64,000 bases of DNA from Anaerolineales bacterium (GTDB lineage: Bacteria; Chloroflexota; Anaerolineae; Anaerolineales; Villigracilaceae): contig JAFGSI010000011.1 of NCBI GenBank assembly GCA_016934715.1, forward strand, positions 2,227 to 66,226, given 5' to 3'. Below, piece by piece: positions 3,340 through 28,675 of this stretch (the first letter of the stretch is position 1; each line of letters opens with the position of its first letter). Both the position numbers and the translations under genes were made by a program. The notes below the pieces were generated by a model that did not search any database, had not been told where the DNA came from, and saw only the letters and a program-made list of their open reading frames with translations.

Positions 3340-4224
3340 TTGTCCACGCTTTCCCCTGACGCGCATTCCACATCGGAGCGCAAGAAGATCACCATCCTGG
3401 CCCTGCGCCAGATGAAGGCCCGCGGCGAGCGGATCAGCATGCTGACGGCCTACGACTACCCCACTGCCCAGGCCGTCGATCAGGCCGGGCTGGAGGTCAT
3501 CCTGGTCGGCGATTCGCTCGGGATGGTCGTCCTGGGCTACGAGAACACCCTGCCGGTCACGATGGACGAGATGCTGCACCACTGCCGGGCCGTGCGGCGC
3601 GGGGCCCATGCCGCCCTGCTGGTCGGCGACATGCCCTTCCTGTCCTACCAGGTGTCGGACGAGGAGGCCCTCCGCAACGCCGGGCGCTTCCTGCAGGAGG
3701 CCGGCATGGACGCTGTCAAGCTCGAGGGCGGAGGCAAGCGCAGTGAGACCATCCAGCGCATCGTGGCGGCCGGGATCCCGGTCATGGGCCACCTCGGCCT
3801 GACCCCCCAGTCGGTCCACCAGCTGGGCGGGTTCCGCCCACAGGCCCGCACCGCCGCCGCCGCCCGGCGCCTGGTCGAGGACGCCCGGCTGCTCGAACAG
3901 GTCGGCTGCTTCAGCCTGGTGCTCGAATCGGTCCCCCGCCAGCTGGCGGCATTGATCACCCGCCAGCTGTCCATCCCGACCCTTGGGATCGGCGCCGGAG
4001 CGGAGTGCGATGGGCAGGTGCTGGTCGTCCACGACCTGCTCGGCCTGTTCGAACGCTTCACCCCCCGTTTTGCCAAGCAGTACGCCGGCCTGCACGCCGA
4101 AATGCAGCGCGCCTTCGGCGAATACCTGGCCGAGGTCCGGGAGGGGACCTTCCCGGGACCCGAGCATGCCATCGACATGGCGGACGACGAATGGGCCGCC
4201 CTGCAGGACCTGTTGCGGGAATGA
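3340..4224 (+). CDS. panB: 3-methyl-2-oxobutanoate hydroxymethyltransferase
   Basis: Contains ISMLTAYDYPTAQAVDQAGLEVILVGDSLGMVVLGYENTLPVTMDEM, a strong PanB signature. The ORF opens at 3127, but an in-frame TTG at 3340 follows GGAGGG by 4 nt and gives a typical ~294 aa length. The start is uncertain. Confidence 0.9.
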   Translation: MSTLSPDAHSTSERKKITILALRQMKARGERISMLTAYDYPTAQAVDQAGLEVILVGDSLGMVVLGYENTLPVTMDEMLHHCRAVRRGAHAALLVGDMPFLSYQVSDEEALRNAGRFLQEAGMDAVKLEGGGKRSETIQRIVAAGIPVMGHLGLTPQSVHQLGGFRPQARTAAAARRLVEDARLLEQVGCFSLVLESVPRQLAALITRQLSIPTLGIGAGAECDGQVLVVHDLLGLFERFTPRFAKQYAGLHAEMQRAFGEYLAEVREGTFPGPEHAIDMADDEWAALQDLLRE

Positions 4225-4230
4225 CGGCCG

Positions 4231-5154
4231 ATGAGCGAAATCCTGATCGTCGGCAGCGGAGCCCTGGCAACCCTGTTCGCCGCCCGGTTGGGAGCCGCCG
4301 GGAACGACATCACTCTGCTGGGCAGTTGGGCGCAGGCCCTGGAGGCCCTGAACAATGGGGGAGCGCAGCTGGAGGGGCGGCCCGCGGTACGGGTGCGGGC
4401 CAGCGCGGACCCGGCCGAGTTCCGCGGCGCCCACCAGGCCCTGGTGCTTGTCAAGGCCTGGCAGACCGAACGGGCCGCCGCCCAACTGGCCGAATGCCTG
4501 GCCCCTGACGGACTGGCCGTCAGCCTGCAGAACGGGTTGGGCAACCGGGAGATCCTGGCCAGCTGCCTCGGCCCGCAGCGCGCGACCGCCGGCGTGACCA
4601 CCGGTGGAGCAACCCTGCTTGGGCCGGGACTGGTCCGCCCGGGCGGCGAGGGGATCCTTTCGCTGGAAGCCCACCCGCGCCTGGATTCGCTTGTATCCGC
4701 CCTGCGGGCAGCCGGCTTCCCGGTCCAGGCAGTGGTCGACGCCGTGCCGCTGATCTGGGGGAAGCTGGTCATCAACGCCGCCATCAACCCCCTGACCGCC
4801 CTGCTGCGCCGACCCAACGGCGCCCTGCTCGCCAGCCAGGAAACCCGCCAGTGGATGGGAAATCTGGCCCGCGAGGCTGCCGCAGTTGCCACCGCACTGG
4901 GGATTCGGCTGCCCTACGATGATCCCCCGCAGGCGGTCGAAGAGGTCGCCCGCCAGACGGCCAAAAATCTCTCGTCGATGCTGCAGGATGTCCTGCGCGG
5001 CGCCCCAACCGAGATCGAGGCCATCAACGGCGCAGTCGTCCGCCTGGGAGCAGAGGCCGGGGTCGCAACCCCGCTCAACCGGATCGTCTGGCAGCGGATC
5101 CGCGACCTCAGCCCGAATGCCAACTTTCTTCCCCCAAATTGTCAGGCATGGTAA
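4231..5154 (+). CDS. panE: 2-dehydropantoate 2-reductase (ketopantoate reductase)
   Basis: 307 aa. Has the Rossmann N-terminus ILIVGSGALATLFAARLG and the ApbA/PanE C-terminal SSMLQDVLRGAPTEIEAINGAVV. It lies immediately downstream of panB. Confidence 0.85.
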   Translation: MSEILIVGSGALATLFAARLGAAGNDITLLGSWAQALEALNNGGAQLEGRPAVRVRASADPAEFRGAHQALVLVKAWQTERAAAQLAECLAPDGLAVSLQNGLGNREILASCLGPQRATAGVTTGGATLLGPGLVRPGGEGILSLEAHPRLDSLVSALRAAGFPVQAVVDAVPLIWGKLVINAAINPLTALLRRPNGALLASQETRQWMGNLAREAAAVATALGIRLPYDDPPQAVEEVARQTAKNLSSMLQDVLRGAPTEIEAINGAVVRLGAEAGVATPLNRIVWQRIRDLSPNANFLPPNCQAW

Positions 5155-5185: not shown

Positions 5186-6112
5186 ATGCGAAAGATTCTC
5201 GTGGTGCTGGCGCTGCTGACGGGGCTGCTGGTCCCGGCCGGGGCACAGGCCCAGGCGGAGGTTTCCTTCAGCAGCGTCGTGGTGCAGTTGTGGCCGGAAT
5301 ATGACCAGCCAGCCATGCTGGTCATCTATGACTTCATGCTCTCCCCAGACATGCCCCTGCCGACAGTTTTGACTATACGCATTCCGGCTGCGGCCGGCCA
5401 GCCCTTCGTGGTGGCAATCGGCCCGACCCCGGCAACCGTCGCCGACCAGGACGTGATCTACGAGACCTCCCCCGCCGGCGACTGGATCGAAGTGGCGATC
5501 AACATCCCGAACGGCAATCTTGCCGTGCGCCTGGAATACTACGACCCGGACCTCGCCAGGGACGGCGCCGCCCGGCACTACCTCTACACCTGGCCTGGCG
5601 ACCACGCTGCCACCTCGTTCCACGTCAGCTTCCAGGTCCCGGTCGGCGCGACCAGCTTGCAACTCTCCCCGGCCCTGCCTGACGTGGCCAGCGGCAACAA
5701 CCAGCTGACTTACTATGAAGGCGAACTCGGCCCACTGGCCGCCGGCCAGACATACACTCTGAGCGTAGATTACCAGAAGAACAGCAACGCCCTGAGCATC
5801 TCGGGGGCCTCGGTCCAACCGGCCGCACCGCTGGATGGAGATACACCCGGGCGCCTTTCGCTGCCCGAGATCCTGCCCTGGGTGCTGGGCATCCTGGGCC
5901 TGCTGCTGATCATCGGCGGGGTGATCCTGATCGGATCCTGGCAGGGTGGCAAACGGAACAGATCCGGGCGGCCCAAACACCGACCTTCCCGCCGCGCGGC
6001 GGAGACCGAGGCCGACGGCGGCCCGATCTACTGTCCGCAGTGCGGCAAGCGCGCACAACCGAACGACGCCTTCTGCCGGACCTGCGGCTCGCGCCTGCGG
6101 CGCGGCGAATAG
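5186..6112 (+). CDS. Secreted/membrane-anchored hypothetical protein with C-terminal cytoplasmic zinc ribbon
   Basis: Signal peptide MRKILVVLALLTGLLVPAGAQAQA, a late TM segment ILPWVLGILGLLLIIGGVILIG, and a C-terminal IYCPQCGKRAQPNDAFCRTCGSRL. Confidence 0.6.
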   Translation: MRKILVVLALLTGLLVPAGAQAQAEVSFSSVVVQLWPEYDQPAMLVIYDFMLSPDMPLPTVLTIRIPAAAGQPFVVAIGPTPATVADQDVIYETSPAGDWIEVAINIPNGNLAVRLEYYDPDLARDGAARHYLYTWPGDHAATSFHVSFQVPVGATSLQLSPALPDVASGNNQLTYYEGELGPLAAGQTYTLSVDYQKNSNALSISGASVQPAAPLDGDTPGRLSLPEILPWVLGILGLLLIIGGVILIGSWQGGKRNRSGRPKHRPSRRAAETEADGGPIYCPQCGKRAQPNDAFCRTCGSRLRRGE

Positions 6113-6145
6113 GCCCCTTCCCCGGCCTGGTCTCGAACAGCGGTC

Positions 6146-7660
6146 ATGACCATTCCTCCGATCATCCTGATCTATTTCTTCTACGGCCTGGCCTTCTTCA
6201 GCATGGGACTGCTGGTACTGGTCGAGGGGGGGCGGGCCCTCGACGCCCGCCTGCGGCGAGCGCTGCGCCCGCTGGCCGCCTTCGGCCTGGTCCACGCACT
6301 GCACGAATGGCTGGAGATGTTCGAGGCGATCGCCAGCCTGGACGGCGATCCCCTGCCCGACTGGCTTTTCGGTGTCCGGCTGGCCATGCTGGCCTTTTCA
6401 TTCCTGTCCCTGGGCGCCTTCGGCAGCTACCTGCTGGCAGTCTCGCGCCAGGCCTGGCGCCTGAGCCTGCTGGCGCCGCTCGGGCTGGAGGCTGTCTGGG
6501 TCTTTGGCATCCTGCTGTTGAAGAACCGCTACCCGATCCCCGACCTTTGGACAGTCGCCGACGTCTGGACCCGCTACGCCCTGGCGATCCCCAGCGCCCT
6601 GTTGGCCGCCGTCGGACTGGTCATGCAGCAGCGGGTCTTCCGCCGGGCCGGGCTGGCGACCTTTGGCCGCGATGCCCTGTGGGCAGCCGTCGCCCTGGGC
6701 TGGTACGGGTTGGTCGGCCAGATCTTCGTCCGGGCCTCGGCCCTGCCCCCCTCGAACGTGCTCAACGAGGAGCTGTTCCTGCAAATGTTTGGCATCCCGG
6801 TGCAGCTCTTCCGGGCGGTGGTGGCCGTGCTGGCCTCGGTGTTCATCATGCGCTTCCTGCGCGCTTTCCAGGTCGAGATCGACGGCCAGATTGCCCGCCT
6901 GCAGGAGGAAAAGCTCAGGGAAGCCGAACAGCGCGAGGCCCTGCGCGGCGAGATGGTCAAGCGGGTCATCGACGCCCAGGAATCTGAACGCCAGCGCATC
7001 GCCCGCGAGCTGCACGACGAAACCGGCCAGGCGCTGACCGCCATCGGCCTGGGCCTGCGCGGCCTGACGACCGCACTGCAGAGTGCCCGGCCCCGCAAGG
7101 GGACTGCAGGTCCGTCGCGCGCCGACCAGACCCTGCACCAGCTCCAGAACCTGACCGCCCATTCGCTGACCGAACTGCAGCGCCTGATCGCCGACCTGCG
7201 CCCCTCGCACCTCGACGACCTGGGCCTGCACTCAGCCCTGCGCTGGTACAGCCACGACCTGGGCGAACGGGCCGCAATCAAGGTCGAGGTGGAGTTCAAG
7301 GGCGAGGAACGCGAGCTCCCACCGCAGGTCAAGACCGCCCTGTTCCGCATCTCCCAGGAGGCCCTGACCAATGCCGTCAAACACGCCCTGGCCGATCATG
7401 TCCGGGTCACCCTGTACTACGCCCCCGAGACGGTCTCCTTGCGCATCACCGACGATGGCCAGGGCTTCGATCTGCCGGCTGCCCGCTTGAGCCAGCGTAT
7501 CTCGTGGGGATTAAAAAACATGGAGGAACGGGCCACCCTGCTGGGCGGCCGGTTCACGATCCGTTCGCGGCCCGGCCAGGGCACGACCGTGGAGATCAGC
7601 ATCCCCATCCAGGCCCCACAGGAGGAGAACGATGACGATCCGTCTGCTGCTGGTGGATGA
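6146..7660 (+). CDS. Sensor histidine kinase (HisKA_3/NarX-type) with polytopic N-terminal membrane sensor domain
   Basis: Multiple TM segments are followed by a coiled coil. The H-box is ERQRIARELHDETGQ and the HATPase_c region is DDGQGF...GLKNMEERATLLGG. It is a paralogue of the kinase at 18668..20209. Confidence 0.85.
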   Translation: MTIPPIILIYFFYGLAFFSMGLLVLVEGGRALDARLRRALRPLAAFGLVHALHEWLEMFEAIASLDGDPLPDWLFGVRLAMLAFSFLSLGAFGSYLLAVSRQAWRLSLLAPLGLEAVWVFGILLLKNRYPIPDLWTVADVWTRYALAIPSALLAAVGLVMQQRVFRRAGLATFGRDALWAAVALGWYGLVGQIFVRASALPPSNVLNEELFLQMFGIPVQLFRAVVAVLASVFIMRFLRAFQVEIDGQIARLQEEKLREAEQREALRGEMVKRVIDAQESERQRIARELHDETGQALTAIGLGLRGLTTALQSARPRKGTAGPSRADQTLHQLQNLTAHSLTELQRLIADLRPSHLDDLGLHSALRWYSHDLGERAAIKVEVEFKGEERELPPQVKTALFRISQEALTNAVKHALADHVRVTLYYAPETVSLRITDDGQGFDLPAARLSQRISWGLKNMEERATLLGGRFTIRSRPGQGTTVEISIPIQAPQEENDDDPSAAGG

Positions 7661-8282
7661 CCACCAGGTAGTGCGTTCGGGCCTGCGCATGCTGCTGGCC
7701 AGCGAGAGCGACGTCGAGATCACCTGCGAGGCCGGGACGGCCAGGGAAGCCATCGCCGCCGTGGAAAACTGCCGCCCCGACGTGGTCCTGATGGACATCG
7801 GCCTGCCCGATATGTCGGGCATCGCGGCCACCCGGGCGATCAAGAGCGCCCACCCGGAGGTGGCCGTGGTGGCCCTGACGATCCACGAGGACGAGGAGTA
7901 TTTCTTCAAGATGCTCGAGGCCGGAGCCGGCGGCTACGTCCCCAAGCGAGCCGCGCCGGAGGAGCTGCTGACCGCCATCCGGGCCGCGGCCCGGGGCGAG
8001 GTCTACCTCTACCCGTCGATGGCCAAGCTGCTGGTCAAGGACTTCCTGGCCCAGGAGCGCCCGGAGGAGGGTGTGACTTCGCTCGATGGCCTGACCGATC
8101 GCGAGCAGGAGGTTCTGCGCCATGTGGCCGAGGGCGCCACCAACGACGAGATCGCCGAGATTCTGGTCATCAGCCCGAAAACGGTCGCCCGGCACCGCGA
8201 GAACATCCTGCAGAAACTCAGCCTGCACTCGCGGGCCGAACTGGTGCGTTACGCCATCCGGAAGGGGATCATCAAGGCCTAG
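7632..8282 (+). CDS. Response regulator, NarL/LuxR family
   Basis: Receiver domain IRLLLVDDHQVV...DVVLMDIGLPDMSG plus a LuxR HTH, LTDREQEVLRHVAEGATNDEIAEILVISPKTVARHRENILQKL. It overlaps the end of the kinase gene. Confidence 0.9.
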   Translation: MTIRLLLVDDHQVVRSGLRMLLASESDVEITCEAGTAREAIAAVENCRPDVVLMDIGLPDMSGIAATRAIKSAHPEVAVVALTIHEDEEYFFKMLEAGAGGYVPKRAAPEELLTAIRAAARGEVYLYPSMAKLLVKDFLAQERPEEGVTSLDGLTDREQEVLRHVAEGATNDEIAEILVISPKTVARHRENILQKLSLHSRAELVRYAIRKGIIKA

Positions 8283-8299
8283 CTCCTCGAATCACCTTT

Positions 8300-8319
8300 A
8301 TTGGGTAGATTTACCCAAT
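8300..8319. promoter_or_regulatory. Perfect 8-4-8 palindrome ATTGGGTA-gatt-TACCCAAT; candidate response-regulator operator
   Basis: Read directly from the sequence, 18 nt downstream of the RR stop. The half-site TACCCAA resembles the NarL heptamer TACYYMT. Related ATTGGGC copies lie at 8324-8330 and 8425-8431. Confidence 0.4.
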
Positions 8320-8343
8320 TTTGATTGGGCATCTTTTCACAAT

Positions 8344-8379
8344 CTCCGGACCCACAGGTAGGGTCCGGAGAGTATTTTT
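8344..8379 (+). terminator. Rho-independent terminator after the first two-component operon
   Basis: A 10-bp stem (ctccggaccc / gggtccggag) with a 7-nt loop, followed by agtattttt. Confidence 0.7.
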
Positions 8380-8503
8380 CCTCCGACAGAAGTTGAAACG
8401 TGGGCTGCGGCTCCCACGGCAAAGATTGGGCACCCGCCGAATTGTCTGCGCAGGACGGATCCCGTACACTATAAGTGAAAATCATAACGAAAGGAGCGCT
8501 GCC

Positions 8504-8623
8504 ATGGAAAGCACACTGATGGTCATCCTATTCACGATCGTCCGCCTGGGGGTCCCGATCGGCCTGCTGCTGGCCATCGGGGAGGCGATCCGCCGCCGCA
8601 ACCGCAAGAGCAGCCTTGTGTGA
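8504..8623 (+). CDS. 39-aa single-TM peptide (MESTL paralogue 1)
   Basis: AAGGAG sits 7 nt upstream of the ATG. The product is MESTLMVILFTIVRLGVPIGLLLAIGEAIRRRNRKSSLV. Its first 15 nt are nearly identical to the start of the next gene. Confidence 0.5.
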   Translation: MESTLMVILFTIVRLGVPIGLLLAIGEAIRRRNRKSSLV

Positions 8624-8629
8624 GACAGT

Positions 8630-8956
8630 ATGGAAAGCACGCTGTTTGTCGTTCTCGGTCTGCTGCTGCGGATCGGACTCCCGCTCGGGTTGACGATCCT
8701 GGTCTTTGCCCTGCTGCGCCGGTTGGACCAGCGCTGGCAGGCAGAGGCCAGGGCCTCCGTCCCGGTGGTCCCCGCCTCGCAGAAACCCTGTTGGGAGGTC
8801 AGGGGATGCCCGGAATGCCAAAGGAAGGATTGCCCGGCGGCGAAAAATGCCAGGACGCCCTGCTGGCAGACCTTCCGTTCCCGGGAAGGGACCTTGAAAG
8901 AGGCCTGTCTGGATTGCGACGTTTTCCGCCAGGCACCGCCTCCGGTGCGGGCGTGA
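8630..8956 (+). CDS. Small membrane-anchored Cys-rich protein (MESTL paralogue 2; two CW motifs, 7 Cys)
   Basis: 108 aa. An N-terminal TM segment MESTLFVVLGLLLRIGLPLGLTILVFALL is followed by PCWEVRGCPECQRKDCPAAKNARTPCWQTFRSREGTLKEACLDCDVF. It starts 6 nt after the stop of paralogue 1. Confidence 0.6.
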   Translation: MESTLFVVLGLLLRIGLPLGLTILVFALLRRLDQRWQAEARASVPVVPASQKPCWEVRGCPECQRKDCPAAKNARTPCWQTFRSREGTLKEACLDCDVFRQAPPPVRA

Positions 8957-8984
8957 TTTTTAGCCAAATGAGGAGATGCCGATT

Positions 8985-9926
8985 ATGAACAAACGCGAAC
9001 GTTTTGCCCTGGCAGCGGTTTTCGCCCTGCTGGCCGCGGGTGTGACCCTGGTGATGGTCCAGGCCAAGGCCGAGGCCCCGGCCCCAGCCGTCCAGGAACA
9101 GGAACCCTTGAACTGCTCCGAATGCCACCAGGACTTCCAGATGGAATGGGCCTCGGGGGCCCACTCATCGGCGACCAACGACCCGATCTTCGCCCAGGCC
9201 TGGGCCGATCAGGGTCAGCCCGGTGCCTGCATGGTCTGCCATGTCACCGGTTACGATCCCGGCACCGGCACCTGGGAACAGGACGGGGTGGCCTGCACAG
9301 CCTGCCACAACCCGGTCCCGACCAATCACCCCGAGGAACCCATGCCGGTGCAGGACACAACCGAACTCTGCGGCCAATGCCACAGCGACGCCCGCTTCGG
9401 ATGGCAGGAATGGCAGACCAGCACCCACTACCAGCGCGGCATGGACTGCACGGTCTGCCACGACCCGCACTCGGCCTCGCTCAAGAACGTCGAGGGCCTC
9501 GAGGCCCAAGGCCCCTCCGGCCTGTGCGTCAACTGCCACCGCGACTACAACATGGACTTCCCCTACTCCAATCATGCGATGGCCGGCCTGAACTGCGTCG
9601 ACTGTCACCTGCGCCACTTCGGCTCCTCTGGCGGCCGCACCATCCATACCATGCCCGATCACAGCTTCACCGCCAGCCTGACCTCCTGCACCTCCTGCCA
9701 CGACCGGGAAATGCACGGCCCGACCGATGCCGCAACCGGGGCCGAGATCACGACCCAGGCGGTTGTCCCGGCGACGAACGGCGCACTGGCCGAAGAACCC
9801 GCCCCGGTCAGCCCATACGGCTTCGCCGGCCTGGCCGGCCTGCTCGGGTTGGCTGGCGGCATGGTCCTGGCGCCCTGGTTGGAGCGAGCCTACCGCAAGC
9901 TGTCCCAAAAGGAAAAGTCGTCATGA
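8985..9926 (+). CDS. Octahaem c-type cytochrome with N-terminal signal/anchor and C-terminal TM helix
   Basis: Eight CxxCH motifs: CSECH, CMVCH, CTACH, CGQCH, CTVCH, CVNCH, CVDCH, CTSCH. The C-terminal hydrophobic stretch is GFAGLAGLLGLAGGMVLAPW. I chose the ATG at 8985, 9 nt after GAGGAG; the ORF opens at 8976. Confidence 0.85.
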   Translation: MNKRERFALAAVFALLAAGVTLVMVQAKAEAPAPAVQEQEPLNCSECHQDFQMEWASGAHSSATNDPIFAQAWADQGQPGACMVCHVTGYDPGTGTWEQDGVACTACHNPVPTNHPEEPMPVQDTTELCGQCHSDARFGWQEWQTSTHYQRGMDCTVCHDPHSASLKNVEGLEAQGPSGLCVNCHRDYNMDFPYSNHAMAGLNCVDCHLRHFGSSGGRTIHTMPDHSFTASLTSCTSCHDREMHGPTDAATGAEITTQAVVPATNGALAEEPAPVSPYGFAGLAGLLGLAGGMVLAPWLERAYRKLSQKEKSS

Positions 9927-10693
9927 GCGAAACCAACCTCAACCGTCGTGATTTCCTGAAACTGGCCGGCGTCAGCGTGGCCGCCATCGGTGGGTTGCAG
10001 ATCTACCGCCGGGCGGAGGCCTCCAGCGGAGGCCCGGAGGGCGAGCACCAGTGGGCAATGGTCGTCGACCAGTCCAGGTGCACCGGCTGCGATTACTGCA
10101 CCCTGGCCTGCCGGGCTCACAACGACATCAACCCCGAGATCTCCTGGAACCAGGTCATCGAAACAGGTGCGATCAGCGGCAAGCAGGTCTACCTCGCCCG
10201 GCCGTGCATGCACTGCGAACACGCCCCGTGTGTGGATGTCTGCCCGGTGCAGGCCAGCACCTACCGCCCGGACGGCATCGTGCAGATGGATTACGATCGC
10301 TGCATCGGCTGCCGCTACTGCGAGGTGGCCTGCCCCTACGGGGCGCGCTCCTTCAACTGGGAGGCCTTCACCGGTCGCAACCCGGCCGTCCCGCAGTGGG
10401 GGCAGCCCGAGGTCGCCCGTCGCCCGCGCGGCGTGGTCGAGAAGTGCTCCTTCTGCTCCCAGCGCATCGACCGCGGCCTGGCGCTCGGCCTGACCCCCGG
10501 CATCGATCCCGACGCCACCCCGGCCTGCGTGGTACGCTGCCCGACCGGGGCGCGCATTTTTGGCGATCTGAAGGACCCCGAATCAAATGTCAGCCAGCTC
10601 CTGCGTGGGCATGCCTCTTTCCGCCTGCGCGAAGACCTGGGCACCAGGCCGCGGGTCTACTACCTGCCGCCCAATGGCTCCCCGGAGGCCTGA
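9923..10693 (+). CDS. 4Fe-4S ferredoxin-type iron-sulfur subunit (NrfC/HmcB/PsrB/DmsB family) with Tat signal
   Basis: MSETNLNRRDFLKLAG is a twin-arginine signal. The Cys clusters are CTGCDYCTLAC, CMHCEHAPCVDVCP, CIGCRYCEVACP and CSFC..CVVRCP. An ATGA overlap links it to the upstream cytochrome stop. Confidence 0.85.
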   Translation: MSETNLNRRDFLKLAGVSVAAIGGLQIYRRAEASSGGPEGEHQWAMVVDQSRCTGCDYCTLACRAHNDINPEISWNQVIETGAISGKQVYLARPCMHCEHAPCVDVCPVQASTYRPDGIVQMDYDRCIGCRYCEVACPYGARSFNWEAFTGRNPAVPQWGQPEVARRPRGVVEKCSFCSQRIDRGLALGLTPGIDPDATPACVVRCPTGARIFGDLKDPESNVSQLLRGHASFRLREDLGTRPRVYYLPPNGSPEA

Positions 10694-10694
10694 G

Positions 10695-11954
10695 ATGAAG
10701 AAGATCGCCAAACTGAAACTGACCCCCTGGATGGCCTGGGTCGGCCTGCTGGTCACGGTCATCGCCGCCGGTGTGGCAGCCGGGCTGATGGTCTTCGTGA
10801 AGGGGCTCTCGCTCACCAATCTGACCGACATGGTGCCCTGGGGCCTGTGGATCACGATCGACCTGTCGTCGATCGCCATCAGTGCCGGCGCCTTCAGCCT
10901 GTGTGCGGCTGTCTACCTGCTGGGCCTCAAGCGCTATCAACCGTTGGCTCGCACGGCGACCTTCATCGGCCTGATCGGCTACACCATGGCCCTGTTGACC
11001 CTGCTGATGGACATTGGCCGCCCCGACCGATTCTGGCACGCGGTGGTCTACTGGAACCGGCACTCGCTGCTCTGGGAAGTGACCATGTGCGTCACGCTTT
11101 ACCTGGCCGTGCTGGCGCTGGAAGCGATGCCGATCTTTGCCCAGTTCGAGTGGCTGCGTACCCGCCTGCCCAGACTGGCCGCCAGGATGGAACGCGTCCA
11201 CCACTACGCACCCTACCTGGCGATCGTCGGGTTGGGGCTGTCGATGCTGCACCAGTCCTCGCTGGGGGCGGTCTACGGCGTGCTCAAGTCACGCCCGTTG
11301 TGGTACCGGCCCGACATCTCGATCCTGTTCATCGTCTCGGCCGTGGCCGGCGGGATGGCCCTGACCGTCTTCGCCTCGATGCTCTCGGCCCGCATCACCC
11401 GGCGTGCCAACATCGACGACGGGCTGCTCGAGCGGGTGGCGTATTTCATCGGCTGGATCCTGGTCGGCTACCTGTATTTCCGCTTCTGGGACGCCCTGTC
11501 AATGACTTACACTTACGAACCCGGCCGGACCGAGGGCCTGCGCATGCTGACCAGCGGCCCGTTCGCCTTCAACTTCTGGATCGGCGAGATGCTGCTGGGG
11601 GCGGTGGTTCCGATCCTCCTGCTGCTGCGCCGCCGGACCCGTCAGGTTCCCTTCTGGCGCATGCTGGCCCTGCTGCTGGTCGTCGGCGGCGTGGTGGCCT
11701 ACCGCTGGGACACCAACCTGTCCGGCCAGTTGATCGTGCTGTCCTATCTGCCGGGTGAACCGGCGGTCGCCTACACCCACTACGTCCCTTCACTGATCGA
11801 GTTCGCCAGCGGGGCGGGCGTGGTGGCCTACGGCCTGCTGGCCTTCTCGCTCGGCGTGCGCTACCTCGGGGTGGTCAACCACGAAGCAGCCGCCGAGGAG
11901 CACTTCGAGGAGATGCCGGCCCGCGAGGCCCTCCCGGCCCCGACCGGAGATTGA
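10695..11954 (+). CDS. NrfD/PsrC/HmcC-family polytopic membrane quinone-interacting subunit
   Basis: 419 aa and highly hydrophobic. VPWGLWITIDLSSIAISAGAF and DIGRPDRFWH are typical NrfD-family motifs. GGAGG lies 6 nt upstream of the ATG. Confidence 0.8.
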   Translation: MKKIAKLKLTPWMAWVGLLVTVIAAGVAAGLMVFVKGLSLTNLTDMVPWGLWITIDLSSIAISAGAFSLCAAVYLLGLKRYQPLARTATFIGLIGYTMALLTLLMDIGRPDRFWHAVVYWNRHSLLWEVTMCVTLYLAVLALEAMPIFAQFEWLRTRLPRLAARMERVHHYAPYLAIVGLGLSMLHQSSLGAVYGVLKSRPLWYRPDISILFIVSAVAGGMALTVFASMLSARITRRANIDDGLLERVAYFIGWILVGYLYFRFWDALSMTYTYEPGRTEGLRMLTSGPFAFNFWIGEMLLGAVVPILLLLRRRTRQVPFWRMLALLLVVGGVVAYRWDTNLSGQLIVLSYLPGEPAVAYTHYVPSLIEFASGAGVVAYGLLAFSLGVRYLGVVNHEAAAEEHFEEMPAREALPAPTGD

Positions 11955-12050: not shown

Positions 12051-13748
12051 CTATTGTTCCGGCGCGCCGGCCAGGATCCATTGGATCACGATGTCCAGCT
12101 CCTCGGGCGACAGGTTGACGAAGTGGCTGCCGCGCTGGACCTGGACCAGCAGGCTGGCGTCAGGATTCCCGGCCAGGATCACCGGCCCGTCGTCCCCGCC
12201 AGCCACCGCACCGGAGTGGGTGCTCAGGTCAAGCCCGGCGTTCGGGGCGGCGGGATTGTGGCAGGCGGCACAGCGCAGGGAAAAGAGCGGACCCACATTC
12301 GCGGCAAAGGTCGGCGTCCCGACCACCGCAGCCAGGGTCGGCTCGGGGGAGGGGGGCGGCAGCTGATCGCGCAGGGTCTCGCGCAGGGCCGGGGCGTCGA
12401 AGGCGGCGTACGTGTAGGCGCTGCCATGACAGGCGCTGTTCGAGCAGAAGGAGGTGTTGGATGTTCCGCCCGGATCGCCGGTGGTGTGGCAGTTGGAGCA
12501 GGTGGCGTCGAAGACCGCGTTGTGCAAGGCGATCCAGTTGGGGTTGAGGTGCGACCCGGGCTCCGGCCCGCGGCTGATCTCGATAGTGGCGACGAAATCG
12601 CCCTCCCCGGCCACGACCGGGATCGAGTGGCACAGGTTGCACTCCAGGCGGATGGCTTCCTGGTCCAGGTTCAGGTGCGTGCCGTCATGGCAGCGGAAGC
12701 AGCCGGGAGCGGTGATGTGGCCAAGGTTGTTCGGATGGGTCGTCCAGTCGACCTGCTGGTCGTGGAAGACCGAGCGGTCATAGATCTCCTGCACGACGAT
12801 CACCGCCGCCGCGAGCTGCTCCTGGTTCCCGGCAAAAAACTCCGGCAGGTTCTGGCGGTAATAATCGGTCAGGCTGGCGATCCCCTCCATGGCCGCAGCC
12901 CGGGATTCGTAGCCAGCCTTGAGCACCCGCAGCGCCTGGCGGCGGATCTGGGGGATGCCGGCATCGATCAACCCCAGGGTCAGGGCCCGGTCGACCGACT
13001 CTTCGGGGGTCAGGAACGCGTGCGTGACCCGGTTGTGACAGGTGATGCAGTCCATCTCGATCAGCTGACTCTCGTCGAGCGTTGCCGGGTCGAAGTCGGA
13101 TTCAATATCGATGTACTCGGTAGAAGTGCCGTCGTTGTTGACCACCCGCACATAAGGGATCTCCTGGCGGGCCAGGTCATTGGCGTAGTAATAGACCGGG
13201 TTCTCGATATGCCAGTGGATGCCGCGTCCCAGCCCCTCGCGGGCGCTGCCGCCCCCGGTGTGCATGATCAGGTAGGTGTCGGCCTGGGTGTTGCCGTTAT
13301 CGTTGCCGAAATGGGTGATCACCCGCAGGCTGTCGTCGGAGAAGGTCTGCGGGGCATGGCAGCGCTCACAGGTCACCTGCGCCGGACGCGAGCGGGTGGC
13401 CCGGATGGGGAATTCATAGGTCTGGAAGACCATGGCGGTGAGCTCGCGCACGTCCTCCGATTTGCGGCGCAGCTGCTCCCCGAGCGAGGCGCGCCCGATG
13501 TGGCACTCGCTGCAATAGACATTGGCATGCGGCGAGAGCAGGTAGGTCACATCCTGGGGCGGCATGGTGTGGCAGGCCGTCCCGCAGAAGGTCGGGGAGT
13601 TGGTGTATTCCCAACCGTACGTGCCGCCGACCACCAACCCGATGGCCAGCAGGCCGAGAATGGCATAGGGCAGGATGGTGACCCAGCGCGGTGAACCCGC
13701 CGGCGGGAAGAAAAAATTCCGGGTCGCCTGCTTGAAGCGTTTGACCAT
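12051..13748 (-). CDS. Membrane-anchored multihaem cytochrome: NapC/NirT-like N-terminus, extra haem sites and a C-terminal PSCyt1-like monohaem module
   Basis: A TM segment ILPYAILGLLAIGLVVGG is followed by CGTACH, CSECH, CERCH, CITCH, CFRCH, CNLCH, CSNCH, CSNSACH (CX4CH) and CAACH. The C-terminus is GPLFSLRCAACH...ILAGNPDASLL...WILAGAPEQ. I chose the ATG at 13748, 8 nt after GGAGG. Confidence 0.8.
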   Translation of the reverse strand: MVKRFKQATRNFFFPPAGSPRWVTILPYAILGLLAIGLVVGGTYGWEYTNSPTFCGTACHTMPPQDVTYLLSPHANVYCSECHIGRASLGEQLRRKSEDVRELTAMVFQTYEFPIRATRSRPAQVTCERCHAPQTFSDDSLRVITHFGNDNGNTQADTYLIMHTGGGSAREGLGRGIHWHIENPVYYYANDLARQEIPYVRVVNNDGTSTEYIDIESDFDPATLDESQLIEMDCITCHNRVTHAFLTPEESVDRALTLGLIDAGIPQIRRQALRVLKAGYESRAAAMEGIASLTDYYRQNLPEFFAGNQEQLAAAVIVVQEIYDRSVFHDQQVDWTTHPNNLGHITAPGCFRCHDGTHLNLDQEAIRLECNLCHSIPVVAGEGDFVATIEISRGPEPGSHLNPNWIALHNAVFDATCSNCHTTGDPGGTSNTSFCSNSACHGSAYTYAAFDAPALRETLRDQLPPPSPEPTLAAVVGTPTFAANVGPLFSLRCAACHNPAAPNAGLDLSTHSGAVAGGDDGPVILAGNPDASLLVQVQRGSHFVNLSPEELDIVIQWILAGAPEQ

Positions 13749-13828
13749 GTGCGCCACCTCCAGAATAAATGGAGCGGGCTTCCAGGCCCTTGGCGCGGCC
13801 TGGAGGCCGGATCCTACCTGTAATTATA

Positions 13829-15055
13829 TTACCGTTCCGGGGCCCCGGCGTCGATCCAGTCGCGGACCCGCTCCAGATCTGCGGAACGCAATGTGGCAGG
13901 ATGGCTGCCCTCTGCCTGGACGAGGACCAGCAGGCTGTTGATGCTGTCACCCGGCAGGATCACCGCTCCGTTACTGCCGCCCTGCAGGGCCTCGGCATAG
14001 CTGGTCAGCGACAGGCCAGTCGGTGCGCGGCTGGCATGGCAGATGCCGCATTGCTGCTGGAACAGGGGCCCGATGGCGGCCTCCCAGGTCAGGGGACCCG
14101 GAGCCGGGGTCGGGAGCGGGGTTGGGGTCTGCGGGACGAAGATCTCGATCTGGGTTTCGGGCGGGGCGATCGTGGCGGTTGTCTCGGCGCCGACGAAGCC
14201 GTAGACGCCGAACAGCATGGCAACCGTCAACAGGCCGGCGATCGGCCAGTAGATGCGCTGGCGACGGCGCAGGGTCCGGGAGTCGACCGGCCGCTCGGCC
14301 AGCCCGGCCTTGATGTCGGCCAGTTCGAGAGGATGCTCGTGCAGCATCTCCTCCTCGCTCAGCCTGCCGGTGAACATGCTCTTGTTGAACCTGCGGATGT
14401 GGACACTGTACATGTGCCAGATGAAGATGGCTGCCACCGCCAGCAGGGCCTCGCCGCCATGGGCCGCCTTGGCTGCCGGGATGGCCTCGCCGGGCAGGAT
14501 CCGGGCAGTGGCGATCGGGTTCCACATCATGAAGCCGGTCAGGCCCATGATGATCGTGCCCCACACCAGGGCCCAGTATTCCAGCTTCTCTTCGAAAGTG
14601 TAGCGGCCCATCTGCGGACGGGTCCTGGCAACCCCCAGGTTGTACAGGAAAGCCTGCCAGGCATCCTTGACATCCTTGATGACGGGCAGCATCGTCAGCG
14701 GGACACGCAGGACGAAGATCTTGGAACCGATGTCGATGATGTGGTAGATGGTCAAAAGCATCAGCACCACGGCGAAAACGTGGTGGAGGCTGCGGGTCAT
14801 TTCGATGCCGCCGAAGAAGCGGATCATCGCCTGGGCCCAGCCGGCCAGCGGAAACTTCTGTGGCAGGCCGGTGAGCCCCAGCAGTGAGAAGGAGGTCAGG
14901 AGCAGGAAGTGGGCAATCCGCTGAGTCCAGTGGAAGCGCGCGTAGACCGCCGGCTGCTTCTTGGCCGGGGCTTTCGTCCTTCCGATCGCCTTCCCCTTGG
15001 CGGTCCCTTTCTTCACTGCCGGGGCCGCCGGTTTGGGAGTGGATTTCTTGCTCAT
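13829..15055 (-). CDS. b-type cytochrome (FdnI/HydC-like membrane dihaem family) fused to a C-terminal PSCyt1-like c-type monohaem module
   Basis: A Lys-rich N-terminus is followed by RFHWTQRIAHFLLLTSFSLLGLTGL and further TM helices with conserved His residues. The C-terminus is GPLFQQQCGICH...ILPGDSINSLL...WIDAGAPER. An ATGA overlap links it to the upstream gene. Confidence 0.75.
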   Translation of the reverse strand: MSKKSTPKPAAPAVKKGTAKGKAIGRTKAPAKKQPAVYARFHWTQRIAHFLLLTSFSLLGLTGLPQKFPLAGWAQAMIRFFGGIEMTRSLHHVFAVVLMLLTIYHIIDIGSKIFVLRVPLTMLPVIKDVKDAWQAFLYNLGVARTRPQMGRYTFEEKLEYWALVWGTIIMGLTGFMMWNPIATARILPGEAIPAAKAAHGGEALLAVAAIFIWHMYSVHIRRFNKSMFTGRLSEEEMLHEHPLELADIKAGLAERPVDSRTLRRRQRIYWPIAGLLTVAMLFGVYGFVGAETTATIAPPETQIEIFVPQTPTPLPTPAPGPLTWEAAIGPLFQQQCGICHASRAPTGLSLTSYAEALQGGSNGAVILPGDSINSLLVLVQAEGSHPATLRSADLERVRDWIDAGAPER

Positions 15056-16212
15056 ACGCGCTTCGCTCCTTTACGACGGTCGATCAACCGGCGGACAAAG
15101 TCGCTGATGACGAAGAGGATCATCGGGCCGAGCACACCAGGGATGAAGAATTTGTAGAACAGGTTGACATAGTAAACCAGCGGGTAATTCTGCGAATCGG
15201 GGATGTAATGGCTCATCCAGGCGTCGGGGAAGTTCGCGCTGGCATCGGGGTGGCACTGCTGGCAGCGAATCAGGATGTTCTCCTTCATTGCCAGGCCGTT
15301 GACCGGATCATCCACCGGGGCGATGGCGTGGATGCCGTGGCAGTCATAGCAGACCGGCTTGTTGGTCGGCTGGTCAGGCGAGGTGCTTTCGAACAGGGTG
15401 ACGGTCGTGCCGTGGAAGTCGGCCACGTAGGTGTTCAGGACCTGGGTCGAGATGCCGTACGGCTGCATGCGCTCGGGATCCGTGTGGCAGCCGGCACACA
15501 ACAGCGGCGAGTTGAGCCGGAATTCGTTGGTCGTCGGATCGCCGATGTCGTGGACGCCGTGGCAGTCCATGCAGGTCGGGACATCGGGATTGCCCTCCCC
15601 GGTCAGGGCCGCGCCGTGTACGCTGTGCGCATACTGATCGTAGATGGTGCTGTGGCAGCGGGCACAGGTCTGCGGAATGTGCAGGCGCGCCTCCGGAAGC
15701 AGGGTGCCACTGCGGTCGGTGATCGGGGTCTGGGTGTGAGGGTTGTGGCAGTCGGTGCAGACGGCGGCGTTGGTGTTCCCGCCCGCCAGGGCTCGCTGGT
15801 GGACCGAGTCGAGGGTCGCGTCGTACTGTTCGGCGTGGCAGGCCTGACAGACAGTGTACATCTCGAGGGTGTATTCGCGCGCGCTGCGGGCAGTCAGTTC
15901 GGGGTGCGGGAACTGGGAAATGGTGGTATGACAATCTGTACAGGGCAGGTTGCTGTGGACCGAGTCGTCGTAGTGGGCCGGGTCGATGGTCAGGACCAGG
16001 GCCCCCCCGTCGGGCAGCGGGCGCTGCTGGCCGGGCCGGCCATGACAGGTCAGGCAGGCCTCGTTCTGGGGCAGGTCCGCCGGGAGGGGAGAGGGGGAGG
16101 CTCCCGCCGGCCTGGTCAGGATCGCCAGGACCGTCCCCAGCAGCGCGATCCCGACCACGAAGATCGGGATGCGCAGCCTGCGGGTGGAAGAATGGGTACC
16201 GGGTGCGTGCAT
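15052..16212 (-). CDS. Nonahaem c-type cytochrome with N-terminal anchor and C-terminal TM helix
   Basis: Nine CxxCH motifs: CLTCH, CTDCH, CQACH, CTDCH, CARCH, CMDCH, CAGCH, CYDCH, CQQCH. The C-terminal hydrophobic stretch is FFIPGVLGPMILFVISDF. I chose the ATG at 16212, 6 nt after GGGAG. Confidence 0.85.
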   Translation of the reverse strand: MHAPGTHSSTRRLRIPIFVVGIALLGTVLAILTRPAGASPSPLPADLPQNEACLTCHGRPGQQRPLPDGGALVLTIDPAHYDDSVHSNLPCTDCHTTISQFPHPELTARSAREYTLEMYTVCQACHAEQYDATLDSVHQRALAGGNTNAAVCTDCHNPHTQTPITDRSGTLLPEARLHIPQTCARCHSTIYDQYAHSVHGAALTGEGNPDVPTCMDCHGVHDIGDPTTNEFRLNSPLLCAGCHTDPERMQPYGISTQVLNTYVADFHGTTVTLFESTSPDQPTNKPVCYDCHGIHAIAPVDDPVNGLAMKENILIRCQQCHPDASANFPDAWMSHYIPDSQNYPLVYYVNLFYKFFIPGVLGPMILFVISDFVRRLIDRRKGAKRV

Positions 16213-16287
16213 TGCGTTCTCCCTTGGGAAATTTGGATCACGAATGAGTGCTGGAAAAACACGGCGGGCCTGGGATGGGCCGTCCCC

Positions 16288-16331
16288 AACCAAAAGAGGA
16301 GAAGCGAGGGCAGGCGGCCTGCCCTCGCTTC
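16288..16331 (-). terminator. Rho-independent terminator after the decahaem lipoprotein gene
   Basis: A near-perfect palindrome gaagcgagggcaggc g gcctgccctcgcttc. On the minus strand it is followed by TCCTCTTTTGG. Confidence 0.65.
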
Positions 16332-16344
16332 CGATCGAACTGGA

Positions 16345-18468
16345 TTACGGCCGGGTCATGGCAGACACGTCGACGTTCATATAGACGAGCGTGTCGTACA
16401 GGACCTGGATCACGTAGCGGCCGTTGTGGGCAAAGGCGCCCGGATCCTTCTGGAAGTACTGGTAGTTGTAAGCCGCGATCAGCAGGCGCGGGGACCAGGT
16501 GGAGTACCCACCCTCGCCCTCGTCGACCAGGCCGTTGGCATTGGCATCCGCAAAGAAGTACGGATAAGCGGTCGGGCTGTAAGCGATCGGTGTGCTAAGC
16601 GTATCCGCCGCATAATCCTGGATGGCCAGGTAGAGCAAGTCGGCCATGGTAGCGATCTCCTGGTCGAGCGGCTCGGCAGCGTCGCCGTCACCGTCGTAAT
16701 CGATGGCATTGGCGGTCATGCGGATCTCGCGCACGTCGCTGATGCCGGTGTGGCAGGTGGCGCAGGTCGAGAGAGCAATTTCCAGGGAGTGGGCATCGTG
16801 GCAGGACAGGCAGGTGTTGAGGTTGCCGCCCATACTGGCCGGGTGATCATTCTGACCGAAGTACGCATTGCCGGCGAACTGGTACATGCCCTGGGCTTCG
16901 TCGCCGAAGAGCGTGGCGCCGGCCGCAAAGTAGTGGATGTTGCGGAAACGGATGGACGCCGAAACCTCATCCGCCGGCGTGCTGCCGATCACACGGTTGA
17001 CGCTGGCCATCGACTCGCGCCCCTGGTGGCAGGTGATGCACAGGTTGCTGTCGGCGCCCTCTCCGAAGGTGACGGACAGGCCGCTCGGCATGCTGACCGA
17101 ATCAACCGTGTAGCGGTTGGGCCAGTTGGTCTCGTCGTGGCAGGTCGAGCATTGGAAGCCGTTGGAGGCCGGCTGGGCGATCGTGCTGCCCGCATTGGCC
17201 AGGAACATGGGCAGGCCGGTGGCGGTGTGACAGCGAACGCAGCCGTTCGGTACGGTGCCGAAATCGGGATCGCCGTCCCAGTGGCGGAAGGGCTCGGTGT
17301 TGCCGGCGAAGTGCCCGGCATCCTGGCGGCGCATGGCGCTCATATCGATCGGGTTGGACAGCTGGGTATTCAGGTCAGCCAGCGAGTCGAACAGCAGCTG
17401 GATGATGTACTTGTTGCCATGGGCGAAAGCCCCTGGGTCCTTGACCGACAACTGGTAGTTGTAGGCGGCGGCAAGCAGGCGCGGGGTCCAGGCAGTGAAC
17501 CGATTGGGGACGGTGGCCTCATCTTCATCCAGTATGCCATTGGCATTGGTGTCGATGAAGAAGTACGGGTAGGCGTCCGGCGAGTAGGCAACCGCCGTGC
17601 CGGCAATCTCAACGGCGTAAGCCTGGATGCCGGCCAGGAGCGCTGCCTGCATGCCCTGGATCTCGTAGTACATGCCTTCCGTGAGGTTGCCGTCGCCATC
17701 GTAGTCGACCGTGGAGGAGGGCTCGCGCACGTCGCGCAGGGCCTCGACCGTATCGACCTCGTGGCAGAACGAGCAGGTCTCGAGCTGGATTTCGAGGGTG
17801 TGCGAATCGTGGCAGTCCACGCAGGTGCTGACGCCCTCGACGTGCTCATAGCGGGAGTCGTAGGACATGCCTTCGTACTGGTAGCCGCCTCTGGCCTGGC
17901 CGCCATAGAGGGTGGCCGCCGCGGCGAAATAGTGGATGTTCAGGAAGCTGAGGTCGGCGCTGACCGTATCAGGAGCCATGCCGGCGGTGGCTTCCGCCAC
18001 GCTCCCGCCAGACTCACGTCCCTGGTGGCAGACCATGCAGCGAGCCTCAGGGCCGAGGCCGGTGACGGTCACGCCGGACGGGAAGGTGACACTGGAGAGA
18101 GTCTGGGTGGCATCATTGTGGCAGGTGGTGCAGGAGATGACGCCGCCGGGTGCCGCAACGTCAGCATCCACCATGCCGGCTGCGCTGCCGTCACCGCCCA
18201 GGAAGTCAACGTAACCAGCCGGGCTGTGGCAGCGGGCGCAGTCCGCCGGAATGACGGCCGGATCGTCCCCATCCCAGTGAACGAAGGCTTCCGCCGAGGC
18301 ATCGGCGTGGGCTGAGCCGGCCCAAGCCGCCAGGAAGGGAGGTTCGGCTGCCGGAGCAGCCACCTGCCCGCCGGTCATCTCTTCGGTGGCGCCGCTTCCG
18401 CAGGCGACCACGACCGTCGCCAAAAGCAGCAAACCACCGATCAGGAAGAGCAGTCTCTTTATGGACAT
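16345..18468 (-). CDS. Decahaem c-type cytochrome lipoprotein built from two pentahaem repeats
   Basis: Signal and lipobox MSIKRLLFLIGGLLLLATVVVAC. Ten CxxCH motifs: CARCH, CTTCH, CMVCH, CVDCH, CSFCH, CVRCH, CSTCH, CITCH, CLSCH, CATCH. The two ~330-aa halves align, e.g. NIHYFAA..., DYDGDG..., YPYFF.D.NANG, AAYNYQ, DPGAFAH. I chose the ATG at 18468, 9 nt after GAGGAG. Confidence 0.85.
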   Translation of the reverse strand: MSIKRLLFLIGGLLLLATVVVACGSGATEEMTGGQVAAPAAEPPFLAAWAGSAHADASAEAFVHWDGDDPAVIPADCARCHSPAGYVDFLGGDGSAAGMVDADVAAPGGVISCTTCHNDATQTLSSVTFPSGVTVTGLGPEARCMVCHQGRESGGSVAEATAGMAPDTVSADLSFLNIHYFAAAATLYGGQARGGYQYEGMSYDSRYEHVEGVSTCVDCHDSHTLEIQLETCSFCHEVDTVEALRDVREPSSTVDYDGDGNLTEGMYYEIQGMQAALLAGIQAYAVEIAGTAVAYSPDAYPYFFIDTNANGILDEDEATVPNRFTAWTPRLLAAAYNYQLSVKDPGAFAHGNKYIIQLLFDSLADLNTQLSNPIDMSAMRRQDAGHFAGNTEPFRHWDGDPDFGTVPNGCVRCHTATGLPMFLANAGSTIAQPASNGFQCSTCHDETNWPNRYTVDSVSMPSGLSVTFGEGADSNLCITCHQGRESMASVNRVIGSTPADEVSASIRFRNIHYFAAGATLFGDEAQGMYQFAGNAYFGQNDHPASMGGNLNTCLSCHDAHSLEIALSTCATCHTGISDVREIRMTANAIDYDGDGDAAEPLDQEIATMADLLYLAIQDYAADTLSTPIAYSPTAYPYFFADANANGLVDEGEGGYSTWSPRLLIAAYNYQYFQKDPGAFAHNGRYVIQVLYDTLVYMNVDVSAMTRP

Positions 18469-18667
18469 TTCGTGATTCTCCTCAAATGTTTTTGGGGGCG
18501 AACAGTGGAAAAGGGGATTGGGTGGGAGCACCTCCTTTTGGGCCAATAGCCCCAAGCAAGATCTTGTGAAGAACAACCATATTGGGTTTATAACCCCAAC
18601 GACGATTAAAATCAAGTTAATTATTAATGACAATCTCGTGACATATATCACTCAATTCGCATGACAA

Positions 18668-20928: not shown

Positions 20929-21018
20929 AAAACGCTCATGAGACCACATTCTCACCCCGGTTTAATCTCCATATGGATAATTGACCTTATTCCCTTTCGA
21001 TCGGTAGGAGGAATATCC

Positions 21019-21498: not shown

Positions 21499-21584
21499 TT
21501 TGACAGATGTGACGGCTTTCGAGGTACGAGCGGAACTCCCGCTGGGAACTTCGCGAAGCCGTTCCTTTGTTTTAAGGAGTCGCC

Positions 21585-23591: not shown

Positions 23592-23617
23592 GCCAGAACC
23601 CCAAAAGGCAAACCGGC

Positions 23618-24133: not shown

Positions 24134-24141
24134 GGAATCGA

Positions 24142-24732: not shown

Positions 24733-24735
24733 CTG

Positions 24736-25221: not shown

Positions 25222-25248
25222 ATACGGGATGCTCTCAAGGATTTTTGG

Positions 25249-27183: not shown

Positions 27184-27214
27184 ACCGTTCCGCCCGTCGA
27201 AAATCGTTGCTCTC

Positions 27215-27906
<692 letters not shown>

Positions 27907-27910
<4 letters not shown>

Positions 27911-28623: not shown

Positions 28624-28675
28624 CCTGCCGCCGATCCAATTATTGGTCGTTCCTCCCCCCTACGAAAGGATGCTG

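Follow-up and report, generated by a model that had tools for sequence, protein, structure and literature searches.

HrrS and ChrS of Corynebacterium are haem-sensing kinases with six experimentally mapped helices, for which perception inside the membrane has been proposed and in which a Tyr-Phe-Phe triad in helix 4 is key (PMC5812335). In LytS/BtsS, the transmembrane (TM) bundle of the kinase is itself a small-molecule receptor; BtsS is described as a 7-transmembrane (7TM) receptor binding pyruvate (PMC10653868). Histidine kinases of the HisKA_7TM family also possess a seven-helix N-terminal membrane region. Precedents for iron motifs are the ExxE of PmrB and the RExxE of BqsS, both situated in the periplasmic loop that two TM helices enclose in these HisKA/OmpR-type systems, and the RExxE found inside TM helices of the FTR1/EfeU permeases. 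Here, we describe two histidine kinases, HK1 and HK2, that flank a multihaem cytochrome island in a 64,000-nucleotide stretch of DNA from an Anaerolineales bacterium (GenBank assembly GCA_016934715.1, contig JAFGSI010000011.1, positions 2,227 to 66,226), hereafter the window, which has a GC content of 62-68% and lies on contig C13 of a 4.09-Mb genome (labelled G000).

HK1 and HK2 share with HrrS/ChrS a HisKA_3 core, a NarL-type partner, a polytopic N-terminus without large loops and putative targets related to haem or cytochromes (PMC5812335). For the likely working of their membrane domain, LytS/BtsS probably provide the best analogy (PMC10653868), although HK1 and HK2 have no 5TM-5TMR_LYT match, a HisKA_3 rather than a LytS-type core and a NarL instead of a LytTR regulator. 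HisKA_7TM kinases are abundant in the lineage, with 9 in G000 (contigs C58, C73, C60, C61, C86, C74, C48 and others) and up to 15 in relatives, but their conserved motifs are unlike those of the family of HK1 and HK2. The H-E-W-L-E sequence of HK1 contains an acidic motif of the ExxE type, a candidate iron ligand as in PmrB, BqsS and FTR1/EfeU; in contrast to the loop motifs of PmrB and BqsS, the conserved E54-x-x-E57 of HK1 is found in the middle of TM2 within a 7TM bundle.

Two paralogous kinases with a shared membrane domain

The N-terminal domain of HK1 and HK2 represents a large, well-defined family that is new to Pfam-A, NCBIfam and the PDB, of a general kind (polytopic membrane sensors on two-component kinases) that is already known. 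The literature was searched for the domain and for two-component systems linked with ccm or multihaem genes in Chloroflexi, and no relevant paper emerged. Over their full length, the two kinases share 38% identity (E 6e-82). Their membrane domains, compared on their own, share 35% over 243 amino acids (aa; E 4e-28) and are collinear, with small gaps only. An earlier note on this DNA, made from the sequence without database searches, had claimed such a shared collinear domain, and the alignment bears it out. The motifs that it listed, YGLAFF(S/G)MGL and R(A/L)LRPLAAFGL(V/I)H(A/G)xHEWLE(M/A), are present in both proteins, while the third one is present in the form G-[IF]-P-[VI]-Q-L-x-R-[AS], the register given before being off by one residue and its gap unnecessary. 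The coordinates proposed for HK1 hold; HK2 had been placed at 18668, where its open reading frame (ORF) of 513 aa begins (18668-20209), and its start is most likely M19 (18722), the first residue of the 495-aa database gene call.

Both proteins carry the features of the HisKA_3 kinase class (NarX/DesK/LiaS). In HK1, HisKA_3 (PF07730) spans aa 281-355 (E 1.4e-14) and HATPase_c (PF02518) aa 396-489 (E 1.1e-14), and the same models match HK2 with E values of 3.2e-11 and 8e-12. The ELHDET box contains the phospho-accepting histidine, H290 in HK1 and H321 in HK2, and a NarL/LuxR-type response regulator is encoded next to each kinase (RR1 and RR2, respectively). HK1 and HK2 fall in deeply separate clades of the tree, each with many orthologues, and are therefore ancient paralogues. 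Two copies of the sensor domain were found in the window genome, both at this island.

The sensor domain had been described as unrecognised, a view upheld by every search made against Pfam-A (2025 copy), NCBIfam (20) and PDB sequences. Residues 1-245/270 of HK1 and HK2 gave zero Pfam-A matches even at E=10, and models for 5TMR-LYT, 7TMR-DISM_7TM, the MASE families and MHYT had no match to either N-terminus at E≤10. NCBIfam models matched the kinase core only, with none on the N-terminal domain and no HrrS/ChrS model among those listed, and the PDB sequence search with this domain was empty. Likewise, no Pfam membrane-sensor model matched at E≤1e-3 in 69 diverse members of the family. HisKA_7TM, named earlier as one possible assignment, has to be abandoned: its model PF16927 misses HK1 and HK2, the genome search with it retrieved 9 other proteins in G000 and none at C13:8387 or C13:20894, and the alignment of a 119-sequence family profile with a 17-sequence HisKA_7TM profile in hhalign reached a probability below 1% (0.2-0.7%). 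PF16927 matches were present in 59 out of 61 relatives and never fell on kinases of the HK1/HK2 type.

A seven-helix fold with a conserved polar signature

Hydropathy and the positive-inside rule predict seven TM helices in the sensor domain, with the N-terminus outside and the C-terminus inside. The AlphaFold2 model of the HK1 domain, based on a 94-sequence alignment, is a 7TM bundle (predicted local distance difference test, pLDDT, 92; predicted template-modelling score 0.89) with helices at residues 5-28, 34-65, 73-97, 101-126, 131-167 and 171-193, a short outer helix at 208-215 and a last one from 219 onward; both hydropathy and the model place the His/Glu motif inside TM2, in mid-membrane. 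Foldseek detected nothing in the PDB at E≤1e-3. The top matches were class B G-protein-coupled receptors and microbial rhodopsins, which have in common with the domain an up-down bundle of seven helices, N-terminus out and C-terminus in, at E values of at least 0.03 (at least 0.06 for the rhodopsins), template-modelling scores of about 0.5, root-mean-square deviations of about 7 Å and 11-17% identity; the TM7 Lys to which rhodopsins attach retinal has no counterpart, as no Lys is conserved anywhere in the sensor domain. As judged from the model, this resemblance is that of a generic 7TM topology and no evidence of homology. In the full-length model of HK1 (pLDDT 90), residues 219-314 form one single helix according to DSSP, and thus TM7 continues, with no HAMP domain in between, as the linker and then as DHp helix 1, where H290 is located. 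Where the earlier note had described a coiled coil and a HisKA_3 core behind the sensor, Pfam and AlphaFold2 give a long helix and a HisKA_3 domain.

A profile built from both N-terminal domains was searched against 1.84 billion representatives, retrieving 2,409 family clusters (50% identity) at E≤1e-3, of which 1,474 remained at E≤1e-10 and 187 still at E≤1e-30. Conservation was counted in 119 full-domain representatives that are mutually at most 50% identical. Conserved residues (HK1 numbering) are Y13, G14, L15, F17, F18 and G21 in TM1; L43, F46, G47, H50 (116/119), G51, H53 (89/119), E54 (116/119), W55 (115/119) and E57 (E in 87, D in 19) in TM2; R78, L82, S85 (118/119), F86 and L89 in TM3; D139, R143 (115/119), Y144 and P149 in TM5; Y187 and Q192 in TM6; and P202, N207, F211, G216, P218, Q220 and R223 (117/119) in the outer loop and TM7. 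The paired histidines that had been singled out in these kinases do not survive this comparison as a pair, as only the first of them is near-invariant and H53 is replaced by S, V, N, Y, T or A in distant members; the family signature is therefore not a His pair but F-G-x-x-H-[GS]-x-x-E-W-x-[ED]. H50, E54 and E57, at positions i, i+4 and i+7, lie on one helix face. The HK1 and HK2 clades do not differ in the near-invariant polar residues. From helix positions and hydropathy, these residues appear to lie between the membrane centre and its outer surface and may well converge in one three-dimensional pocket.

The 7TM domain is a mobile module. Among 69 members scanned for their architecture, HisKA_3 was found in 64, GAF in 20 and PAS in 4, HisKA_3 being joined to the sensor either directly or through GAF or PAS, and a few were fused to HisKA or HisKA_2/HWE; stand-alone copies of 238 aa occur in one genus. 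An example of the latter is locus L169 (G083:C138), where the stand-alone domain (4126-4839), which has no kinase, is directly followed by an ORF with nine CxxCH motifs (5201-7225), and the same form was found in two other genomes of this genus. Source labels were overwhelmingly Chloroflexota/Anaerolineae, with single metagenome-assembled genomes (MAGs) labelled Syntrophothermus, Planctomycetota and Omnitrophota. In the phylum sample, the domain was detected in 38 out of 301 genomes (26 out of 171 genera), and in closer relatives in 33 out of 60, the three congeneric genomes being without it.

The cytochrome island and its counterparts in relatives

The bracketing of a cytochrome island by the two kinases, already pointed out in the earlier note, is evident from the gene layout (Table 1): four proteins with 7-10 CxxCH motifs, one cytochrome b and an NrfC/NrfD pair are encoded between HK1 and HK2. 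Only nine ORFs with at least four CxxCH motifs, our definition of a multihaem ORF, exist in the whole genome, and four of them are located here. The cytochrome c maturation (ccm) operon behind RR2 contains a complete System I set; Pfam matches give ccmE, ccmF and ccmH, then a protein of the thioredoxin type, one with a Zn-ribbon and a cytochrome c, and last ccmA, ccmB and ccmC, in this order.

Table 1. Positions in the window of the two kinases, their functional elements and the genes of the island
Feature	Position	Strand	Basis or remark
HK1, 7TM-sensor HisKA_3 histidine kinase, 504 aa	6146-7660	+	ORF, translation, Pfam
HK1 sensor domain, aa 1-245, seven TM helices	6146-6880	+	Hydropathy, positive-inside rule, AlphaFold2
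HK1 TM2 motif H50-A-L-H53-E54-W55-L-E57	6293-6316	+	Coordinates and family conservation
HK1 uninterrupted helix, aa 219-314 (TM7, linker and DHp helix 1)	6800-7087	+	DSSP of full-length AlphaFold2 model
HK1 phospho-acceptor H290, ELHDET motif	7013-7015	+	
RR1, NarL/LuxR-type response regulator	7632-8282	+	Response_reg and GerE; start overlaps HK1 stop by 29 nt
Two small membrane proteins in the interval from RR1 to the octahaem gene	8504-8956	+	
Octahaem cytochrome c, 8 CxxCH	8976-9926	+	Pfam and CxxCH count
4Fe-4S NrfC-like protein, exported by twin-arginine translocation (Tat)	9929-10693	+	Pfam
NrfD-like membrane subunit	10587-11954	+	Pfam
Divergent cytochrome operon: decahaem, nonahaem, cytochrome b561-type with PSCyt1, NapC/NirT-like heptahaem with PSCyt1 tail	12051-18468	-	Pfam, CxxCH counts
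HK2, paralogous 7TM-sensor HisKA_3 kinase	18722-20209 (ORF opens 18668)	+	
HK2 sensor domain	18722-19477	+	
HK2 motif H72-E79	18881-18904	+	
HK2 phospho-His H321	19628-19630	+	
RR2, NarL/LuxR-type response regulator	20230-20928	+	Response_reg and GerE
System I cytochrome c maturation operon	20938-29374	+	Pfam; 9-bp gap after RR2

Multihaem ORFs were found within 10 kb of the kinase gene in 64 out of 80 loci with HK1 orthologues, all from different species genomes, and most of the remaining loci lie at contig ends; further loci from relatives gave 17 out of 20. Considering only the 54 HK1-orthologue loci with at least 6 kb of downstream DNA, the genes that follow in the same direction encode a response regulator (50), a Cys-rich two-CW protein (48), the octahaem cytochrome (48), NrfC (46) and NrfD (47). 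In other genomes, too, there are pairs of such kinases at distances of 12-15 kb. The HK2 orthologue is transcribed divergently from a multihaem operon in 3/3 loci and heads a ccm operon in 2/3, with the same ccm gene order in loci L127 and L129, and it too adjoins deca-, nona- and heptahaem genes and a cytochrome b gene. GAF-clade members lie among the same modules in 2/3 loci, in L170 next to a ccm operon; in L170 and L172, unannotated ORFs of 123-128 aa were detected just behind the response regulator. Three deep clades of Anaerolineales thus have the kinase next to a common set of modules: octahaem-NrfC-NrfD, cytochromes of the CbcL-like type and the ccm operon. By genome, kinase and octahaem gene were both present in 21 cases, the kinase only in 12, the octahaem gene only in 1 and neither in 26 (Fisher p = 7e-7, a statistic that ignores kinship). 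Co-occurrence with multihaem cytochrome genes, which the earlier note had put forward as a check, is thus strong in the Anaerolineales clades.

The three genomes of the same genus (G001-G003) contain neither the sensor kinases nor an octahaem orthologue. Given this absence and the small number of multihaem ORFs in the window genome, the cytochrome island looks like an accessory block that has been gained or lost.

Some other genes of these loci deserve mention. Both small membrane proteins at 8504-8956 open with MESTL, and the second one (8630-8956) is the two-CW protein, with a Cys-rich tail (CWEVRGCPEC...). Membrane proteins with a C-terminal Zn-ribbon are encoded directly upstream of HK1 (5186-6112) and inside the ccm operon (24736-25221); what they have in common is the ribbon only (44% identity over 36 aa), and the one of the ccm operon is kept in loci L127 and L170. 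In locus L043, from one MAG, an ORF with 26 CxxCH motifs (8096-9856) lies immediately upstream of the HK1 orthologue.

Candidate signals and a proposed control circuit

We regard it as very likely that the domain defines a new, self-contained sensor family that regulates the cytochrome/ccm island, the most probable role of HK1 and HK2 being to turn the genes for the cytochromes and for their maturation on or off. Each kinase would phosphorylate the NarL-type regulator encoded next door. The operon under HK1-RR1 would then be the co-directional one that encodes the small membrane proteins, the octahaem cytochrome, NrfC and NrfD, and HK2-RR2 would control both its own ccm operon, for haem delivery and attachment, and the divergent operon of deca-, nona- and heptahaem cytochromes and cytochrome b. 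The signal would be read within the membrane domain itself, in a polar pocket open to the outside and lined by H50, E54, W55 and E57, R78 and S85, D139, R143 and Y144, Y187 and Q192, N207, and Q220 and R223. Its occupancy would shift TM7, to which Q220 and R223 belong, and the rigid helix would pass this shift on to H290. In its full form, that is, 7TM receptor kinases that control the island through adjacent regulators in response to haem or a haem-dependent redox cue, this explanation is plausible and falls somewhat short of probable.

As for the ligand, haem or a haem-dependent redox state is our tentative first choice, for four reasons. HK2-RR2 heads a haem-delivery operon, the ccm genes beginning 9 bp after RR2; the composition of the pocket, with one invariant His, three Arg and aromatics, suits haem; a Planctomycetota member is found in a haem-biosynthesis context; and HrrS/ChrS are a HisKA_3 precedent with polytopic intramembrane haem sensing (PMC5812335). 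In the Planctomycetota-labelled locus (L124, 8245-17936), a distant 7TM-PAS-kinase is flanked by genes for rubrerythrin, nitroreductase, hemC, a NirD/L-like helix-turn-helix protein, hemA and two radical S-adenosylmethionine enzymes, surroundings that look like an alternative haem-biosynthesis cluster with ahb-like genes. A haem site of this kind would use the His as axial ligand, the three Arg as partners of the propionates and the aromatics as its rim, and the cell would match the synthesis of apocytochromes and Ccm to its haem supply, like the corynebacterial HrrS/ChrS.

Several observations weigh against this picture. The argument for control is one of synteny, the grouping of the polar residues in a single pocket is deduced from helix positions and hydropathy, and the choice of haem from genomic context and residue chemistry. 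With only one invariant His, there can be no classical bis-His haem site within one protomer. HrrS/ChrS, compared here by description, have six helices, whereas seven were found in HK1 (hydropathy, AlphaFold2), and a Tyr-Phe-Phe triad in helix 4 where HK1 and HK2 have H-x3-E-W-x-E in helix 2. Outside the Anaerolineales clades, the link with cytochromes fades: in the distant loci of the phylum, only 4 out of 20 have a multihaem neighbour (16 lack one), and although a response regulator adjoins the kinase in 18, it is the only conserved functional neighbour of these 20 loci, the other clusters being opposite-strand shadow ORFs. The Omnitrophota-labelled member lies within a signalling cluster and the Syntrophothermus-like one beside OsmC and DoxX, both with no cytochrome or haem neighbours. 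We also considered a binding site for the regulators. A perfect palindrome, ATTGGGTA-N4-TACCCAAT, is located right after RR1 (8300-8319), and further TACCCAAT-like heptamers are present in the divergent region between HK2 and the decahaem gene (18517-18708). When one mismatch was allowed, the TACCCAAT/ATTGGGTA motif had 22 matches in the window for 18.3 expected, that is, no enrichment; the exact heptamer showed no positional enrichment, and the palindrome was found in 0 out of 80 orthologous loci. Since the motif is not enriched and the palindrome is absent from orthologous loci, the latter is unsupported as evidence of regulation, and we rejected the heptamers as response-regulator boxes.

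The residues ascribed to the pocket also allow other ligands. The H50-x3-E54-x2-E57 stripe, together with D139, would bind Fe(II), Fe(III) or Mn(II), or another metal cation, from the outside, and the kinase would report what extracellular electron transfer produces or consumes and adjust the cytochrome island accordingly. H50, E54 and E57 (E/D) are kept in 97%, 97% and 89% of the 119 representatives on one helix face, the island resembles a metal-reducing electron-transfer apparatus, and FUR and a CbiMQO metal transporter are encoded directly ahead of one GAF-clade member. The motif is, however, at the membrane centre and not in an exposed loop; the equally conserved R78, R143 and R223 at the same depth disfavour a cation site; there is no Pfam match to FTR1 or any metal-transport family; and the classes of kinase and response regulator differ from those of PmrB/BqsS. 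We consider a metal sensor unlikely. A lipophilic ligand would fit the adjoining modules, all of which interact with quinones (NrfD, cytochrome b561-type and NapC/NirT), and the mid-membrane residues are of kinds found in quinone sites. Here, the buried His/Tyr/Ser/Glu pocket would bind menaquinone/menaquinol at the outer leaflet and sense the redox state of the quinone pool, allowing the cell to choose among NrfD-type, CbcL-like and NapC/NirT-like quinol:cytochrome modules. We find this rather improbable: a regular-expression search found the RegB heptapeptide GGxxNPF in 0 out of 119 members and in neither HK1 nor HK2, no similarity was found to any known quinone-sensing kinase, a pocket as rich in charges as this one (three Arg and three acidic residues) is unusual for such a ligand, and the linkage with ccm would be left unexplained.

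The domain could also be a docking platform rather than a receptor, with the MESTL peptide, the two-CW protein or the NrfD complex sensing the cue and controlling the kinase, as in LiaF-LiaS or BceAB-BceS. The two-CW protein found behind HK1-RR1 orthologues in 48 out of 54 loci points in this direction, as do the small unannotated ORFs behind the response regulator of the GAF-clade loci. Yet small genes of this sort are missing beside HK2 and its orthologues, distant members conserve the response regulator alone, stand-alone copies of the domain exist, and some 14 buried polar residues are near-invariant over the whole family, as would be expected of a ligand site or a switch rather than of an anchor. 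We consider docking an improbable function. Finally, the kinases might be mere neighbours of the cytochrome genes with no regulatory tie to them, and sense envelope or membrane stress (pH, proton-motive force or lipid state). This would agree with the contexts lacking cytochromes that the family reaches and with the failure to find a conserved response-regulator box at orthologous loci, but synteny kept over three deep clades and dozens of genera, as well as genome-level co-occurrence, speak against it, and we consider it very improbable.

With haem ranked first among the ligands, HK1 and HK2 could conceivably be the founding members of a new bacterial class of 7TM receptors whose binding site for haem (or iron) lies in the outward-facing half of the membrane, and in which paired ancient paralogues couple haem supply, Ccm and the cytochromes of extracellular electron transfer; we consider this possible, if doubtful. 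Sediments, aquifers and wastewater sludge harbour abundant Anaerolineales, and to our knowledge there is no description of the regulation of their multihaem-cytochrome machinery, putatively one of extracellular electron transfer. If true, the coupling of haem supply, Ccm and extracellular electron transfer would constitute a dedicated control circuit in Chloroflexota, a regulatory logic of which we know no description in any electroactive organism. For the family as a whole, about 2,400 clusters left blank by domain databases now have a fold, a signature (the TM2 motif together with an Arg/Tyr/Gln/Asn set) and a set of proposed target genes. A new Pfam/InterPro entry would be justified and would improve the annotation of thousands of records that now read 'sensor histidine kinase'.

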